A stretch of DNA of 4,879 nucleotides from a virus (lineage: Duplodnaviria > Heunggongvirae > Uroviricota > Caudoviricetes): IMG/VR virus record IMGVR_UViG_2744054628_000007, one strand, 5' to 3'. Positions 1,866 through 4,810 of this stretch are shown here, one piece after another. Below the pieces are notes generated by a model that saw only the letters and a program-made list of their open reading frames with translations, made no database searches and was not told where the DNA came from. Numbering within the stretch: position 1 is the stretch's first letter; every line of letters begins with the position of its first letter. Both the position numbers and the translations under genes were made by a program.

Positions 1866-1900
1866 CCCCAGTAGCACTGGCTGCTGGGGTGCGTTTTATT
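1866..1900 (+). terminator. Rho-independent terminator-like hairpin downstream of trkG
   Basis: CCCCAGTAGC (1866-1875), loop ACTG, GCTGCTGGGG (1880-1889) form a 10-bp stem with one G-U pair. The hairpin is followed by TGCGTTTTATT, with the T-run at 1894-1897. It lies 87 nt after the trkG stop and 17 nt before the next ATG. Confidence 0.6.
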
Positions 1901-1916: not shown

Positions 1917-2708
1917 ATGAGCGAGAAATTAAAGATAGTCTATCGCCCATTACAAGAATTGTCACCGTATGCGCACAACGCCAGGACGCACAGTACTGAG
2001 CAGGTGGCACAACTGGTAGAAAGTATTAAGCAATTCGGCTGGACTAATCCGGTGCTGATTGACGAAAAGGGCGAAATTATTGCGGGTCACGGTCGTGTTA
2101 TGGCGGCTGAAATGCTCAAAATGGATTCTGTTCCGGTCATTGTTCTGTCTGGCCTGACGGATGAGCAGAAAAAGGCGTACCGCCTGGCAGATAATCGCCT
2201 GCCGATGAATGCTGGCTGGGATGAAGATCTGTTGCGGATGGAGCTGTCGGACCTAATCAATGCTGATTTTGATGTCTCCCTGACAGGCTTCATCCCGACA
2301 GAAATTGATGAACTGTTGACGGATGTTTTGCCCGGTACAGGAAATGAGGAGGAGCCGTATACGACGAAAATTGATACGCCTGTTTATGAGCCGTCGGGCG
2401 GTAAACCGGATATCAGTGAACTGTACGACGATACGAAAACTCAGGAGCTGATCAGCCGGATACGTTCGGCGTCCCTTGAGCCTGATATTGAGAAATTCCT
2501 CCTGTGTGCGGCAGAACGTCACACGGTGTTTAATTTCAGCAGAATTGCGGACTATTACGCTCACGCCCCCTCTGAAATTCAGTGTTTTTTCGAGGAGTCG
2601 GCGCTGGTGATCATTGATTATCAGCAGGCTATTGAAAATGGATTTGTCCGGATGACGCAGCGCATGGTGGAGATCATGCATGGTGGTGAGGAGGAGGAAT
2701 ATGCGTGA
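1917..2708 (+). CDS. ynaK: ParB/Srx N-terminal-domain protein (ParB-like nuclease/NTPase fold) with an uncharacterised C-terminal domain; apparently the full-length form of the Rac ynaK locus
   Basis: The 263-aa ORF has a ParB-N pattern across its N-terminal ~135 aa: LSPYAHNARTH, SIKQFGWTNPVLID, IIAGHGRVMAAEML, RLADNR, W, and TGFIPTEIDELL. The gene symbol is assigned by synteny only (directly downstream of trkG, as in K-12 Rac, where I recall ynaK being much shorter). Residues ~135-263 carry no motif I recognise and end in an acidic tail, GGEEEEYA. Confidence 0.8.
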   Translation: MSEKLKIVYRPLQELSPYAHNARTHSTEQVAQLVESIKQFGWTNPVLIDEKGEIIAGHGRVMAAEMLKMDSVPVIVLSGLTDEQKKAYRLADNRLPMNAGWDEDLLRMELSDLINADFDVSLTGFIPTEIDELLTDVLPGTGNEEEPYTTKIDTPVYEPSGGKPDISELYDDTKTQELISRIRSASLEPDIEKFLLCAAERHTVFNFSRIADYYAHAPSEIQCFFEESALVIIDYQQAIENGFVRMTQRMVEIMHGGEEEEYA

Positions 2709-3633
2709 TGATTTTTGCGCCTTTATTCTGACTCACGGGCGACCGGACAAAGTTCTGACTTACCGGACGTTGCGTCGTGCTGGCTATACCGGGAAAATTT
2801 TTATCGTTGTTGATGATGAAGATAAGACACGGCATCAGTACATGGCTGAATTTGGTGAACAGGTGCTGGTGTTTTCCAAAGCCGATATCGCCAGTCGTTT
2901 TGACGAAGCCGATAATTTCTGTGACCGCCGCTCAATTTTTTACGCCCGTAATGCCTGTTTCGACCTGGCAAAACTGGTCGGGTGTAAATACTTCATTCAG
3001 CTCGATGATGATTATCACGAGTTCCAGTTTCGGGTGGATCGCAACTATGACCAGGCCTATTTTCCGATAAGGAAACTGGATGCGATCCTTTCTGAAATGC
3101 TGGCGTACTACGAATCAATACCTGCTCTTTCCATCGCTATGTCGCAGGGCGGGGATTTTCTTGGTGACAATGGCGGCCATGCTTCGTGGGTGAAACGCAA
3201 GGCAATGAACAGCTTTATCTGTTCGGTTGATCGACCGTTCTCATTCATGGGGCGCATTAACGAGGATGTGAATACGTACACGAATCTCGGTCGCTGTGGT
3301 GAATTGTTTATGACGATCGGTGCTGTCCAGTTAGGGCAGAAACAGACGCAGAAAAACAGCGGCGGAATGACCGAGCTGTATCTGGATTCCGGAACCTACG
3401 TTAAAAGTTTTTACTCCGTCATGTATGCGCCGTCGTGCGTAAAAATCTCACTGATGGGTGCCAGCCATAAACGCATTCACCATCAGGTCACCTGGAACAA
3501 CGCTGCAGTAAAAATCCTTCACGAAAAATACAGGAAGAAGACACCCTGCATATCAATGGGGGTGACAAATGATTCCGTATTCGAAAGTCGAGTCTCTGGC
3601 AGCGTGCCGGATGACTGCACAACAAATCGCTGA
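2701..3633 (+). CDS. Uncharacterised soluble protein with GT-A-like (DxD) nucleotide-sugar transferase signatures; putative glycosyltransferase
   Basis: The 310-aa product from ATG 2701 is preferred over ATG 2680 because GAGGAGGAGG at 2688-2697 is a strong SD. The start overlaps the upstream stop by 8 nt (ATGCGTGA). Motifs: CAFILTHGRPD (res 6-16), KIFIVVDDED (res 32-41), FIQLDDDY (res 98-105, nt 3004-3012 = DDD) and INEDVN (res 186-191). No long hydrophobic segment is present. By position it corresponds to the K-12 Rac ydaY pseudogene locus (from memory). The fold assignment is inferred from motif pattern and spacing, not from a search. Confidence 0.6.
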   Translation: MRDDFCAFILTHGRPDKVLTYRTLRRAGYTGKIFIVVDDEDKTRHQYMAEFGEQVLVFSKADIASRFDEADNFCDRRSIFYARNACFDLAKLVGCKYFIQLDDDYHEFQFRVDRNYDQAYFPIRKLDAILSEMLAYYESIPALSIAMSQGGDFLGDNGGHASWVKRKAMNSFICSVDRPFSFMGRINEDVNTYTNLGRCGELFMTIGAVQLGQKQTQKNSGGMTELYLDSGTYVKSFYSVMYAPSCVKISLMGASHKRIHHQVTWNNAAVKILHEKYRKKTPCISMGVTNDSVFESRVSGSVPDDCTTNR

Positions 3634-3820
3634 CGTTCTGGATGTTGATCTGAACCGACTGAAAGAAAATCGGGAAGCAATGACAGATTTTTATGCGGCC
3701 ATCCGTAAGGGCAGAGCGAAAGGTGAAGCCGAGTTACGAGCGGCATTGTTTAAGCTTGCCAGAAAAGGGGATGCCTTTGCTCTGCGCGAACTACTCAGGG
3801 TGGATAAAAATCAGGACTAA
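3569..3820 (+). CDS. Small helix-turn-helix protein, terminase small-subunit-like / packaging-associated DNA-binding protein
   Basis: The 83-aa ORF has GGGGGTGA (3558-3565) ahead of ATG 3569. The pattern ESLAACRMTAQQIADVLDV…FYAAIRKGRAKGEAELRAALFKLARKGDAFALRELL resembles the HTH plus helical repeat seen in small phage terminase-associated proteins. It ends 3 nt before the terminase ORF. An alternative start is ATG 3611. Confidence 0.6.
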   Translation: MIPYSKVESLAACRMTAQQIADVLDVDLNRLKENREAMTDFYAAIRKGRAKGEAELRAALFKLARKGDAFALRELLRVDKNQD

Positions 3821-3823
3821 CTG

Positions 3824-4810
3824 ATGAGCAGACCGGACTGGGGGGCGTTGCAGCAGGAGTATATTGCTGAATACACCCGCTCCGGTATATCTCCGGTGGC
3901 ATGGTGTGAAGCAAGGGGACTGAATTACGCAACAGCCCGTCGTTACATCAAAAAAACTCCGAAAAATGCGCAGACAGAAATGTGCAAAACTGCGCAAAAA
4001 AGTGCGCAGAAAAAATCTGCGCAGACTGCACAAAAGCGGAACGAAAAATCTCAGGAAAAAAAGCCAGTATTCGATGCGGGCCTGAATGAGGGCGACGCGG
4101 AGGAATTTTCGTTCTGTCCCGATGAATTCGGCATTTCTGACCAGCAGGCTAAGTTTGCGATGCTTGTTGCTCAGGGTAAAAAGCCGACATGCAAGGGGAT
4201 TTGGGAGCATCCAGGTATAAATCAGGGATATTTTGCGCCAACGTATCCCCAAATTCGCGATATTTTTTACCCTACAGTGGAAGAAGTTGCTGCTGACTGG
4301 GGATTGAACGTAAAAATTAATGAGGGAAATAAAGAGGTTCACTTTTATTACGGACGCCAGTATCGGGGAACCACTATCTGCAGATCGATGGAGAAGCCAC
4401 AAACGATCGTCGGTTTCAAAATTGGTAATGCGTTGGTGGATGAACTGGACATTTTGCCGAAGGAAAAAGCCAGAACGGCGTGGCGCAAGATAATTGCACG
4501 TATGCGTTATAAGATTGATGGACTTCGCAACGGTATTGACGTTACAACCACGCCGGAAGGATTCAAATTTGTCTACGAGCAGTTTGTTAAAGCCGTGCGT
4601 GAAAAAACAGAGCTGGCCTCACTGTATGGTCTGGTGCAGGCATCTACTTTCGATAATGAAAAGAACCTGCCAGCAGATTACATTCCTTCGCTTCTTGAAT
4701 CATACCCTCCAGAGCTGATTAAAGCCTATCTTCGAGGACAGTTTACTAACCTGACAAGTGGTACTGTTTACCTGATCTTACCCAGCAATAGTGGACACGC
4801 GGCTAAGTGA
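3824..4810 (+). pseudogene. Phage terminase gene remnant: TerS-like HTH N-terminus joined to a TerL ATPase core, truncated by IS3 (the last 38 nt of the ORF are IS3 sequence)
   Basis: The N-terminus (MSRPDWGALQQEYIAEYTRSGISPVAWCEARGLNYATARRYIKK, plus ISDQQAKFAMLVAQGK) resembles a terminase small subunit. From about residue 135 the sequence shows TerL ATPase features: YFAPTYPQIRDIF, Walker B ALVDELD (nt 4430-4450) and TTTPEG (nt 4544-4561). No GxxxxGK[ST] Walker A is present anywhere. The phage-derived reading frame ends at nt 4772 (…TSGTVY) and continues into the IS3 inverted repeat (LILPSNSGHAAK, stop at 4808-4810). No nuclease domain lies within the window. Confidence 0.75.
3950..4063. repeat. 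Phased array of palindromic TGCGCA hexamers interleaved with A-tracts, inside the terminase ORF
   Basis: Perfect TGCGCA hexamers start at 3967, 3991, 4003 and 4018. One-mismatch copies are TGTGCA at 3981 and TGCACA at 4027. Successive spacings are 14, 10, 12, 15 and 9 nt. A-runs of 4-7 nt lie between them and flank the array, for example at 3950-3956, 3962-3966, 3996-4001, 4010-4015 and 4055-4062. The region encodes the peptide repeat NAQTE/TAQKS/AQKKS/AQTAQK. Confidence 0.7.

Follow-up and report, generated by a model that had tools for sequence, protein, structure and literature searches.

A translationally coupled gene pair, encoding an acidic ParB/Srx-domain protein and a predicted TAGT-family GT-A glycosyltransferase, heads the packaging operon of unrelated phages

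In phages, DNA glycosylation is a major determinant of which defences work, be they restriction, CRISPR or glycosylases. The TAGT family has been assigned the GT-A fold (PMC13216743) and its characterised phage members glycosylate DNA (PMC13216743; PMC8256090), where the DNA glycosyltransferases of this fold carry R...DDD...ED motifs (PMC13216743; bioRxiv 10.1101/2023.12.21.572611). The founding characterised member of the Pfam family TAGT (PF20691) is the T2/T6 beta-glucosyl-HMC-alpha-glucosyltransferase (ggt). The link to precursor enzymes, such as TET, gives the TAGT family its name yet lies outside the Pfam definition. The TET/5mYOX-associated glycosyltransferases act post-replication and ParB-like genes are often found nearby; the authors of these studies refer to a proposal by which modification enzymes are guided by ParB as packaging proceeds (PMC8256090; bioRxiv 10.1101/2023.12.21.572611). 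The same GT-A clade also takes in GREB1, a large protein of several domains for which O-GlcNAcylation of ER-alpha has been reported (PMC7968844). A solitary TAGT of unassigned function was found in 288 of the 753 TAGT-encoding phages, and a 2026 study called for its investigation (PMC13216743). As described below, one large clade of solitary TAGT corresponds to an obligate two-gene module with a new partner domain and a fixed genomic position, and for which acceptor-pathway genes were not found in the genomes and neighbourhoods surveyed.

Organisation and conservation of the gene pair

The window, i.e., the whole stretch of 4,879 nucleotides analysed here, derives from a Rac prophage and matches E. 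coli AF44 at 100%. The initial annotation had described two intact ORFs of 263 and 310 aa, overlapping by 8 nt and located between the lysis and packaging modules. Re-checking confirmed all of this, with ORF1 at 1917..2708 (263 aa), ORF2 running from the ATG at 2701 to 3633 (310 aa), an overlap that is exactly ATGCGTGA (2701-2708), and a gene order consisting of the lysis genes, trkG, the ORF1/ORF2 pair, a small ORF, truncated terS/terL and IS3. The features of the locus are as follows:

1866..1889, + strand: terminator-like hairpin in the trkG/ORF1 gap, with a 10-bp stem, 7 G-C pairs and a T-rich tail (context, outside the module)
1917..2708, + strand: ORF1, acidic partner protein (pI 4.5, net charge -25), comprising a ParB/Srx N-module, a linker motif and a conserved C-domain
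1917..2321, + strand: ParB/Srx N-module (residues 1-135), with a helical extension ending in LTGF
2358..2393, + strand: linker motif YTTKIDTPVYEP (residues 148-159), family consensus Y-[TS]-x-K-I-x-x-P-x-Y-E-P
2394..2651, + strand: conserved C-terminal helical domain of the partner (residues ~160-245)
2690..2708, + strand: translational-coupling junction, with SD GGAGGAGGAA at 2690-2699, ORF2 ATG at 2701-2703 and ORF1 stop TGA at 2706-2708
2701..3633, + strand: ORF2, predicted TAGT-family GT-A glycosyltransferase (Pfam PF20691), basic (family median pI ~9)
3565..3633, + strand: non-homologous C-terminal tail of ORF2 (residues ~289-310), overlapping the next ORF and not aligning with the family
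3569..3820, + strand: small ORF of 83 aa, terS-associated HTH-like protein (phrog_309, E=8e-23; context)
3824..4810, + strand: terminase remnant, in which the N-part of TerS is joined by deletion to the N-domain of TerL (context)

The ORF pair is real and beyond chance, as confirmed by matches to curated families above threshold, low dN/dS and recurrent coupling. Among E. coli alleles at ~96% DNA identity, dN/dS is 0.10-0.14; closer allele pairs give 0.04-0.38, values which stem from few substitutions. The pair is present at >=80% coverage in 889 of the 5426 complete E. coli genomes. In the terminase remnant, residues 1-122 match phrog_51 and residues 132-316 match Terminase_6N, and PGAP records both terminase pieces as partial pseudogenes, followed by IS3. 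With respect to K-12, where only fragments had been placed at this position of Rac, the proposal stands for ynaK, which corresponds to the first ~84 codons of ORF1, and falls for ydaY, which is an unrelated downstream gene and not a remnant of the glycosyltransferase (GT) gene, the latter being wholly absent. The small ORF (3569-3820) was considered as a third universal member of the module and rejected, as it lies directly 3' of the GT gene in enterobacterial relatives only.

Co-conservation of the two genes, proposed at first as a check, turned out to be very strong. An ORF1 homologue lies directly upstream and on the same strand in all 113 loci with a called GT ORF (113/113); among 40 non-redundant loci, stop and start overlap in 37, with an 8- or 11-nt overlap junction in 34. 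These pair-bearing loci occur in Enterobacteria, Bacteroidota, Lachnospiraceae, Desulfovibrionaceae, Planctomycetes, Acidimicrobiia and Saccharibacteria, and the ParB-like/GT pair is also found in cultured Lactobacillus phages and in the haloarchaeal virus HHTV-2, the GT homologue of which scores 106.7 bits against PF20691. GT identity is about 48-57% across bacterial phyla and 43% to the archaeal virus. The pair is usually located just upstream of the terminase whichever one is used, terminases of at least six families following it, and it opens the late operon of phage phi jlb1. In the lytic 191-kb Vibrio phage pv27, it sits amid primase, exonuclease and helicase genes, far from structural genes and not near the terminase. 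As such, what had been viewed as a moron/accessory slot is instead a conserved module heading the packaging operon in unrelated phages. In one locus (L019) the partner is fused to a SAM methyltransferase and in another (L028) the pair adjoins an SNF2-N6_N4 methylase. An apparent PolA-partner fusion (L020) was discarded, since it consists of two adjacent ORFs with a stop codon between them.

Predicted properties of the two proteins

From profile searches and structural modelling, ORF2 is clearly a predicted TAGT-family GT-A glycosyltransferase, in agreement with the SpsA-like GT-A fold initially proposed for it. Against Pfam TAGT (PF20691), it scores 122.1 bits (cut-off 27.5, E=3.8e-35) over profile positions 4-205 of 205; it further matches phrog_842 (E=7e-104) and bears the PGAP name 'GREB1-related protein' (WP_001204028.1). 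The Pfam model Glycos_transf_2 gave no match in ORF2, neither did any NCBIfam or PADLOC model, and a search of PDB sequences with the ORF2 profile matched no solved structure. The AF2 model exhibits pLDDT >90 in the N-terminal half and <50 for residues 216-310; family members end at about 285-290 aa. When this model was compared with the PDB by Foldseek, the top matches were all GT-A (6p61, 8zgc, 1qg8, 7msp and glycogenin; E=3e-4 to 1e-2, probability 0.97-1.0), the fold neighbours including SpsA, glycogenin, SunS, ThuS and ColGalT1, and the best viral structural matches being TAGT proteins, down to E=4e-20.

All the motifs quoted for both ORFs in the initial annotation were recovered at their places. 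In ORF2, these are VVDD (36-39), DDD (102-104) and ED (188-189). Across 15 sequences sharing 60-83% identity, the invariant residues include R14, D38/D39, D102-D104, Y105 and E188/D189. With a V following ED and an invariant Y at 193, the third motif can be read as a variant of R...DDD...ED[Y/F]. As judged from a maximal 19-residue Kyte-Doolittle mean of 1.08, ORF2 has no membrane segment, and the methylase motifs [DNS]PP[YFW] and FxGxG are absent from both ORF1 and ORF2, two points on which the original description holds; no methylase domain is present in ORF1.

ORF1 is spanned entirely by phrog_620 (E=1e-90) and named 'ParB/Srx family N-terminal domain-containing protein' by PGAP (WP_001291105.1). 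Its N-module contains LSPYAHNARTH (15-25), FGWTNPVLID (40-49), IIAGHGRVMAAEML (54-67), ADNR (91-94) and TGF (123-125), and matches Pfam ParB_N (PF02195) over residues 23-90 (29.3 bits, cut-off 26.3, E=9e-7). Far better matches are obtained with DNA methyltransferase families, namely phrog_498 over residues 3-141 (E=9e-51) and PADLOC MTase_II over residues 10-144 (E=1.5e-38), which upholds the view that this domain is of the type fused to DNA methylases. In a PDB profile search, Noc, Spo0J and ParB were matched at E=3e-10 to 3e-8 and sulfiredoxin at E=8.5e-5, the Noc/Spo0J matches (E=3e-10) covering profile positions 4-115. The residues of the nucleotide pocket are kept across phyla, G57 and N93 being invariant and R60 present in >=90% of the sequences, and the GxxR box II and box III Asn align with GERR and ENLQR of Noc. 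The N-module may bind a nucleotide, and hydrolysis may differ since His-Gly replaces the Glu-Arg of GERR. In the AF2 model of ORF1, which was built from a shallower alignment, pLDDT is 80-95 for the N-module and 83-95 for residues 160-225.

Past the N-module, ORF1 does not resemble a partition protein. Against TIGR00180 (Spo0J-type partition ParB), it scores 38.1 bits for a cut-off of 58.45 and through the N-domain only; the HTH centromere-binding and dimerisation domains of true ParB were not found in ORF1, where the PDB matches end at about residue 115. Since these domains are missing and a conserved domain of unrelated type occupies residues 160-245, it is misleading that ORF1 was deposited as 'chromosome partitioning protein'. 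The alignment of this C-domain shows FLxxAAxRHxxFxF, IAxYY and SALVIIDxxxAIExGF. Pfam holds no model for it, with only a 14-bit sub-threshold match, and a search over 1.84 billion representatives retrieved 1189 clusters; among the matches listed, the C-domain nearly always closes the protein or lies close to its C-terminus, with one exception (P0312, 382 aa). The linker motif preceding it overlaps a low-confidence stretch of the model (138-155), which is probably disordered, and its Y148, P155 and Y157 are invariant in 32 sequences from many phyla. In at least three lineages, the partner is devoid of ParB-N and retains motif and C-domain, the motif being kept in the haloarchaeal virus as well. 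These ParB-less partners indicate that the C-module and the GT form the core, and that the chemistry cannot depend on targeting of DNA by ParB; the view of ParB as the essential partner element, in which the C-terminal module had gone unnoticed, must then be abandoned. Partner proteins are strongly acidic in every domain, with a median pI of ~4.6.

Possible acceptors and role of the pair

In the annotation of the whole Rac prophage and of the complete phi jlb1 genome, no gene for a TET/JBP, a thymidylate-synthase-like hydroxymethylase or a C5-methylase is listed, and none appears among the top 25 of the 31 and 35 Pfam families listed for the flanks of 39 representative loci (three genes on each side). 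To our knowledge, every characterised TAGT, JGT or T-even enzyme requires as acceptor either a hydroxymethyl-pyrimidine or the sugar that such a base already bears. Lacking a source of 5hmC or 5hmU in the genomes and flanks surveyed, the present enzyme must have an acceptor group different from that of all characterised TAGT enzymes.

In the reading we prefer, to which we give an even chance, the pair constitutes a two-subunit phage glycosyltransferase module whose target would be phage DNA at a late stage of infection, either ahead of packaging or in the course of it. ORF2 would be the catalytic subunit, binding an NDP-sugar and a divalent metal via the invariant DDD(Y) and ED motifs, and ORF1 its obligatory acidic partner, maintained in a fixed ratio by translational coupling. 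Most likely, the linker motif and the C-terminal helical domain of ORF1 would dock onto, activate or complete the basic GT, while the ParB/Srx N-module would be an accessory, probably NTP-dependent, that ties the enzyme to DNA or the packaging substrate. Once modified in this way, the packaged genome may be protected in the next host against restriction and other defences that target DNA. The complementary charges of GT (median pI ~9) and partner (~4.6) speak for two subunits, and a Pfam score above that of the characterised T6 enzyme (35.8 bits) for membership of a DNA-glycosyltransferase family. DNA as the target is favoured by an N-module of methylase-fusion type and by DNA-handling neighbour genes; the extreme conservation of the GT across phyla is likewise what one would expect of a substrate shared by all, such as DNA, rather than of virion proteins particular to a lineage. 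As the hairpin upstream is followed by no promoter-like site and the pair opens the phi jlb1 late operon, expression is probably late. Conversely, an acidic partner without HTH and dimerisation domains does not look like a DNA binder, and a relative, GREB1, is reported to glycosylate protein, both of which count against DNA, as do the precursor genes missing from the genomes and flanks surveyed and the lineages whose partner does without ParB-N. As a whole, the fold and function originally deduced for the pair appear largely right, DNA as the substrate of ORF2 belonging to what we infer. As to the chemistry, we would only tentatively suggest that the module installs a hitherto undescribed DNA glycosylation needing no hydroxymethyl-pyrimidine precursor, the sugar being placed on a canonical base, the backbone or the genome ends by a TAGT enzyme completed by the partner motif and C-domain and tied to packaging through the ParB module. 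In that case, a covert DNA modification would be borne by thousands of temperate phages of bacterial and archaeal hosts, and about one sixth of E. coli genomes would harbour such a prophage.

The main rival, which we regard as rather unlikely, is protein glycosylation, whereby the acceptor would be a packaging or virion protein or, most economically and in a glycogenin-like manner, the partner itself at the Tyr/Thr of the linker motif, the role of ParB being unrelated to the targeting of DNA modification. YTxKIxxPxYEP stays unchanged between E. coli phages and a haloarchaeal virus, and the linker around it is probably disordered, a frequent setting of acceptor peptides, though such conservation could equally denote a docking peptide; motif and C-domain outlast the loss of ParB-N, whereas the ParB N-module, where present, is of the type attached to DNA methylases. 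Glycogenin and the peptide/protein glycosyltransferases SunS, ThuS and ColGalT1 are among the fold neighbours of ORF2, no DNA acceptor is evident in the Rac prophage or the phi jlb1 genome, and protein is the reported target of the TAGT relative GREB1 (PMC7968844); yet DNA is the substrate of those family members from phages and trypanosomes that have been characterised (PMC13216743; PMC8256090; bioRxiv 10.1101/2023.12.21.572611). Morphogenesis genes adjoin the pair, but in pv27 it lies in the replication module, far from structural genes. The position next to terminases would be accounted for if the ParB-like protein aided the terminase at the packaging site and the GT were regulatory or structural, with no chemical modification of DNA. 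In most loci, and irrespective of the terminase family, terS/terL come immediately after the pair, an action of ParB during packaging has been suggested (PMC8256090), and ParB-like or HNH nucleases beside terminases, for which a similar role was proposed, provide a precedent. We nonetheless hold this accessory role to be improbable, given that every catalytic residue of the GT is kept under strong purifying selection, that three lineages keep the GT without ParB-N, that the pv27 pair is not near the terminase and that a single accessory would hardly serve six unrelated terminase types.

Ordinary TAGT chemistry, on 5hmC, 5hmU or glucosyl-5hmC made by genes located elsewhere or on the DNA of a co-infecting T-even-like phage, would suit the strong PF20691 membership of ORF2 and the PHROGs label of its family, which is the T6 activity. 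Here again the prospect is slim: a hydroxymethylase or TET gene is missing from Rac, the complete phi jlb1 genome and the neighbour families listed for the 39 representatives, T6 ggt is too distant from ORF2 to be connected by hhalign or tblastn, and the pair appears silent in the lysogen considering the hairpin and the lack of a promoter-like site. As far as we know, neither do the hosts of pair-bearing phages make any of these three bases. The same silence weighs upon the proposal of a defence or conversion cassette benefiting the lysogen, in which a prophage-expressed pair would exclude other phages, e.g., by modifying incoming DNA or a host component. The pair is intact in a Rac prophage with a destroyed terminase, it occurs in the 889 E. 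coli genomes mentioned above, and its dN/dS is about 0.1, a low value which may simply reflect a past in active phages. Against such a cassette, PADLOC-DB v2 gives no match to ORF2 and matches ORF1 to MTase_II via the ParB module only, the pair keeps its place at the start of the late operon and is found in a large lytic phage too, and the terminator-like hairpin (1866..1889) parts the pair from trkG with no sigma-70-like promoter site between it and the ORF1 ATG. No evidence was found for the defence system suggested at the outset, and we consider such a cassette very improbable.

Either of the two outcomes, DNA modification by the module we prefer or a glycoprotein switch acting as phage packaging begins, would be new and could bear on host range in phage therapy, artefacts in the sequencing of prophage DNA and DNA-labelling tools. 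The module is present in the Rac prophage of ordinary E. coli and deleted in K-12, which offers a clean gain-of-function background.

Comparison with described systems

The pair had been called unstudied, which holds in part only, as the GT family has been named and ParB neighbours of phage DNA-modification genes are documented (PMC8256090; bioRxiv 10.1101/2023.12.21.572611); literature dealing with ParB together with TAGT or glucosyl-HMC was searched for and none was found. M.EcoGII was dropped as a ParB-domain analogue, ParB not being mentioned in the M.EcoGII paper. At the level of the fold, SpsA (1qg8), third among the Foldseek PDB matches, shares with ORF2 the same architecture and spacing of acidic residues at only 12-15% identity, i.e., a fold-level likeness. 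The trypanosomatid JGT, which glucosylates the 5hmU produced by JBP, and the animal GREB1 are remote relatives of ORF2 in the same GT-A clade (PMC7968844; PMC6163654; bioRxiv 10.1101/2023.12.21.572611), and in these papers an ORF1-like partner is described for neither.

T6 ggt belongs with ORF2 to PF20691 (35.8 against 122 bits), and both it and the members of the ORF2 family are phage-encoded soluble enzymes of about 260-290 aa. A direct profile link between the ORF2 family and T6 ggt was not obtained (hhalign probability 0.15%, no tblastn match), so that the connection rests on the shared Pfam model. While T6 ggt adds a second glucose to glucosyl-5hmC, the phage of the window has no 5hmC pathway; the T6 gene follows that of the dCMP hydroxymethylase (gp42), and its surroundings, the upstream side included, contain no ParB-like gene. 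The TET/5mYOX-associated phage GT-A DNA glycosyltransferases have in common with ORF2 the TAGT/GT-A family and the R...DDD...ED layout (Burke et al. 2021, PMC8256090; bioRxiv 10.1101/2023.12.21.572611). Those enzymes need a C5-methylase and a TET dioxygenase from the same cluster to provide 5hmC, whereas the present module comprises two genes and neither enzyme was found in the surveys above; the third motif also differs, being EDV...Y in the ORF2 family and EDY/F in the published enzymes. Finally, the fusions of ParB-N to DNA methyltransferases (phrog_498, PADLOC MTase_II) have an N-module homologous to the N-terminal ~140 residues of ORF1 and share with the pair the logic of a ParB module associated with a DNA-modifying enzyme. 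In place of the methylase, ORF1 bears a dedicated C-domain and motif, and catalysis would be entrusted to a separate, translationally coupled polypeptide, a predicted glycosyltransferase.

Gene order of the window and its remnant in K-12

Against the Rac prophage carried by E. coli isolate AF44, the 4879-bp window gives a 100% match. The initial annotation had described two overlapping ORFs with ParB-N and GT-A-like features, and this held as an observation, i.e., the ORF pair, the overlap and every quoted motif lie where it had placed them, and neither a methylase motif nor a membrane segment is present in either ORF. The holin, endolysin and Rz genes are found upstream of the window, in the flank, and the features of the locus are as follows:

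304-1779: trkG
1866-1889, + strand: strong terminator-like hairpin in the trkG-ORF1 intergenic region (10-bp stem, 7 G-C pairs, T-rich tail)
1917-2708: ORF1, the partner protein
2701-3633: ORF2, the predicted glycosyltransferase (GT)
3569-3820: small ORF
3824-4810: TerS/TerL deletion chimera, followed by IS3 in the source genome

ORF1 and ORF2 overlap by ATGCGTGA, and GGAGGAGGAA stands at 2690-2699, ahead of the ORF2 start. The terminase chimera is a single 328-aa ORF, where the N-terminal part of TerS (residues 1-122) is joined to the Terminase_6N region of TerL (residues 132-316). The G+C content of trkG, 0.31-0.43, is far below the 0.47-0.52 of the flanking phage genes, as would be expected of a foreign moron that entered between the lysis genes and the ParB-GT pair. 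The trkG transcript probably ends at the hairpin, and no sigma-70-like or promoter-like site was found between this hairpin and ORF1. Transcription of the pair would then have to be late and antiterminated, which fits this layout better than expression from the lysogen.

E. coli K-12 matches the window only up to position 2170 (K-12 MG1655 1421000-1430000, at 4378-4981 of that segment). Of the two K-12 remnants proposed initially, ynaK is thus indeed a short ORF1 fragment, namely its first ~84 codons, whereas ydaY, located beyond IS3 on its downstream side in AF44, is an unrelated gene; the GT gene is entirely deleted in K-12, together with the terminase and head genes.

The glycosyltransferase and its partner protein

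ORF2 matches Pfam PF20691 (E=3.8e-35, 122 bits for a cut-off of 27.5), i.e., the TET-associated glycosyltransferase (TAGT) family, as well as phrog_842 (E=7e-104), and is named "GREB1-related protein" by PGAP. TAGTs have been described as GT-A enzymes glycosylating phage DNA (PMC13216743), with an active-site layout R...DDD...EDY/F (bioRxiv 10.1101/2023.12.21.572611). Among the many positions that do not vary in an alignment of 15 homologues (60-83% identity) are R14, D38/D39, D102-104/Y105 and E188/D189. Confidence in the AF2 model is good over residues 1-150 and poor in the C-terminal half; only GT-A enzymes appear among its best PDB matches, where SpsA, the archetype to which ORF2 had been likened from its acidic residues, ranks third, and the best viral matches of the model are TAGT proteins. 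ORF2 is assigned to the TAGT-family GT-A glycosyltransferases, and the fold first predicted for it holds, as does the likening to SpsA. ORF2 is a basic protein, the median pI of the family being ~9. Of note, its last ~22 residues (3565-3633) are not homologous to the family, the members of which end at 285-290 aa, and this tail overlaps the next ORF by 65 nt; the ancestral stop codon of the GT gene seems to have been lost in the E. coli Rac allele.

ORF1 can be divided into three parts:

Residues 1-135: ParB/Srx N-domain (Pfam, 29.3 bits vs 26.3)
Residues ~138-160: acidic linker carrying a conserved motif, of low confidence in the AF2 model
Residues ~160-245: helical C-terminal domain (C-domain), confidently predicted

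While the ParB N-domain call is upheld by Pfam, the N-module is far closer to DNA methyltransferase fusions, matching the N-termini of phrog_498 (E=9e-51) and PADLOC MTase_II (E=1.5e-38). In an alignment to the Noc and Spo0J CTP-binding domain it retains G57, R60 and N93, and ORF1 contains neither the HTH nor the dimerisation domain of partition ParB. In the deposited records ON470581-ON470616 and ON032529, corresponding to near-identical induced Rac-like phages, the pair is labelled "chromosome (plasmid) partitioning protein" and "hypothetical protein"; the domain content of ORF1, to which the former label presumably applies, does not support it. The linker motif, Y-[TS]-x-K-I-x-x-P-x-Y-E-P, is essentially invariant across phyla, and the C-domain, for which there is no Pfam model, is more conserved in the alignment than the ParB part. 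A search of 1.84 billion representative proteins with the C-domain returned 1189 clusters, 1000 of them at an E of 1e-10 or better; among the matches listed, it nearly always sits at or near the C-terminal end, with one exception of 382 aa (P0312), and the proteins are mostly of 250-300 aa, some of 130-200 aa. With a pI of 4.5 and a net charge of -25, ORF1 is a strongly acidic protein, and the median pI of its family is 4.6.

The weight initially given to ParB has to be reduced, as partners of 131-139 aa made of the motif and C-domain without ParB-N occur in a Lachnospiraceae locus (L020), a Bacteroidetes locus (L025) and Vibrio phage pv27 (locus L118, 8459-9888; 139 aa). Conversely, in an Ignavibacteriae MAG (locus L019, 189-1739) the partner reaches 516 aa, with an N-terminal class-I SAM methyltransferase fused to ParB-N and C-domain and the GT directly downstream. 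In a Prevotellaceae MAG (locus L028, 2519-5047), an SNF2 helicase fused to an N6/N4 DNA methylase is encoded upstream of the pair. Given these partner variants, the invariant core of the system is the motif, the C-domain and the GT, ParB-N being a frequent accessory.

Co-conservation and genomic context

Loci were gathered with a GT alignment, GTDB species genomes contributing 33 and IMG/VR 80, and in all those with a called GT ORF (113/113) the gene just upstream, in the same orientation, encodes an ORF1 homologue, as the initial annotation had predicted in expecting co-conservation. Once the set was reduced to 40 representatives (clustered at under 85% identity), the stop of the partner gene overlaps the start of the GT gene in 37, by 8 nt in 18 and by 11 nt in 16. 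The hosts include Enterobacteria, Bacteroides, Muribaculaceae, Lachnospiraceae, Desulfovibrionaceae, Planctomycetes, Acidimicrobiia and Saccharibacteria, and gene calls made independently, for which Pfam hits had been precomputed, recover the same architecture. Among cultured viruses, the gene next to the GT on its upstream side is annotated as ParB-like in Lactobacillus phage phi jlb1 and haloarchaeal virus HHTV-2, whereas pv27 has the partner without ParB-N; for other Lactobacillus phages and Nocardia NTR1, in which the GT is present, the GT alone was compared. Between bacterial phyla, GT sequences share ~48-57% identity, against 43% with the archaeal virus. Of 5426 complete E. coli genomes, 889 contain 80% or more of the pair, and dN/dS is 0.10-0.14 for both genes among E. 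coli alleles at ~96% DNA identity; closer allele pairs give 0.04-0.38, from few substitutions. By this distribution, the two genes are regarded as an obligate module.

Packaging genes usually lie directly downstream, with terminases of many unrelated families (Terminase_6N/6C, Terminase_3, Terminase_2, GP3_package, Sf6-type, T7-type, Terminase_4 + TerL_ATPase, lambda GpA), so that a module heading the packaging genes describes the position better than the moron slot first proposed. Upstream, the gene content is variable: lambdoid phages have lysis genes there, and other loci have primase, helicase or polymerase genes. The late operon of the temperate phi jlb1 opens with the pair; in the 191-kb lytic pv27, the pair stands among primase, exonuclease and helicase genes and the terminase is not adjacent. 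Of note, in a phage also carrying the ParB-TAGT pair (loci L120, 17837-20316, and L121, 8659-11138), three Glycos_transf_2 genes and a fourth with a faint Glyco_tranf_2_3 match follow the major capsid gene in a row, which may be a separate virion-glycosylation cluster.

Possible functions and relation to known systems

The favoured reading, to which we give about an even chance, is a two-subunit DNA glycosyltransferase, the substrate of which would be phage DNA once replicated, either ahead of packaging or in the course of it. It draws on the known chemistry of the TAGT family, on a ParB module of DNA-methylase type with occasional methylase fusion or neighbour, on the association with DNA-handling genes, and on the extreme cross-phylum conservation of the GT, which points to a universal substrate. 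The initial proposal of a GT in place of a methylase was sound in its logic, with an N-module of the kind fused to DNA methyltransferases and a TAGT enzyme as ORF2. The weaknesses of the favoured reading are real, namely the lack of a hydroxymethyl acceptor, so that the DNA chemistry would have to be new for the TAGT family, an acidic partner devoid of the DNA-binding domains of ParB, and an N-domain that can be lost. Ordinary 5hmC chemistry is unlikely: no TET/JBP, hydroxymethylase or C5-methylase was found in Rac, in the complete phi jlb1 genome or among the neighbouring families listed.

The main rival, to which we assign a low probability, is protein glycosylation, most simply of the invariant Tyr/Thr motif of the partner; it is made credible by the protein O-GlcNAcylation reported for GREB1 (PMC7968844) and by glycogenin and peptide GTs among the fold neighbours of the ORF2 model. 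A pure packaging role is unlikely, despite the usual downstream neighbours, and so is the defence role in the lysogen raised at first, against which stand the hairpin and the lack of a promoter-like site ahead of ORF1.

The pair had been called unstudied, which is not entirely so since Pfam names the family and ParB neighbours of phage DNA-modification genes were noted earlier (PMC8256090; bioRxiv 10.1101/2023.12.21.572611); still, no paper was found in the literature on the minimal two-gene module, the partner C-domain or motif, or experiments on this clade. A solitary TAGT of unknown function occurs in 288 of 753 TAGT-encoding phages (PMC13216743). The acceptor problem is real and the module very widespread, and E. 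coli K-12, where it is naturally absent, offers a direct test host. As for characterised enzymes, ORF2 shares its Pfam family with the T6 beta-glucosyl-HMC-alpha-glucosyltransferase, although the T6 enzyme scores only 35.8 bits, and hhalign and tblastn gave no connection between the two, the distance being too great. While family and fold are already known, what appears new here is that an enzyme of the TAGT family is tied to an obligatory partner domain, one not described before, and comes without a precursor pathway.
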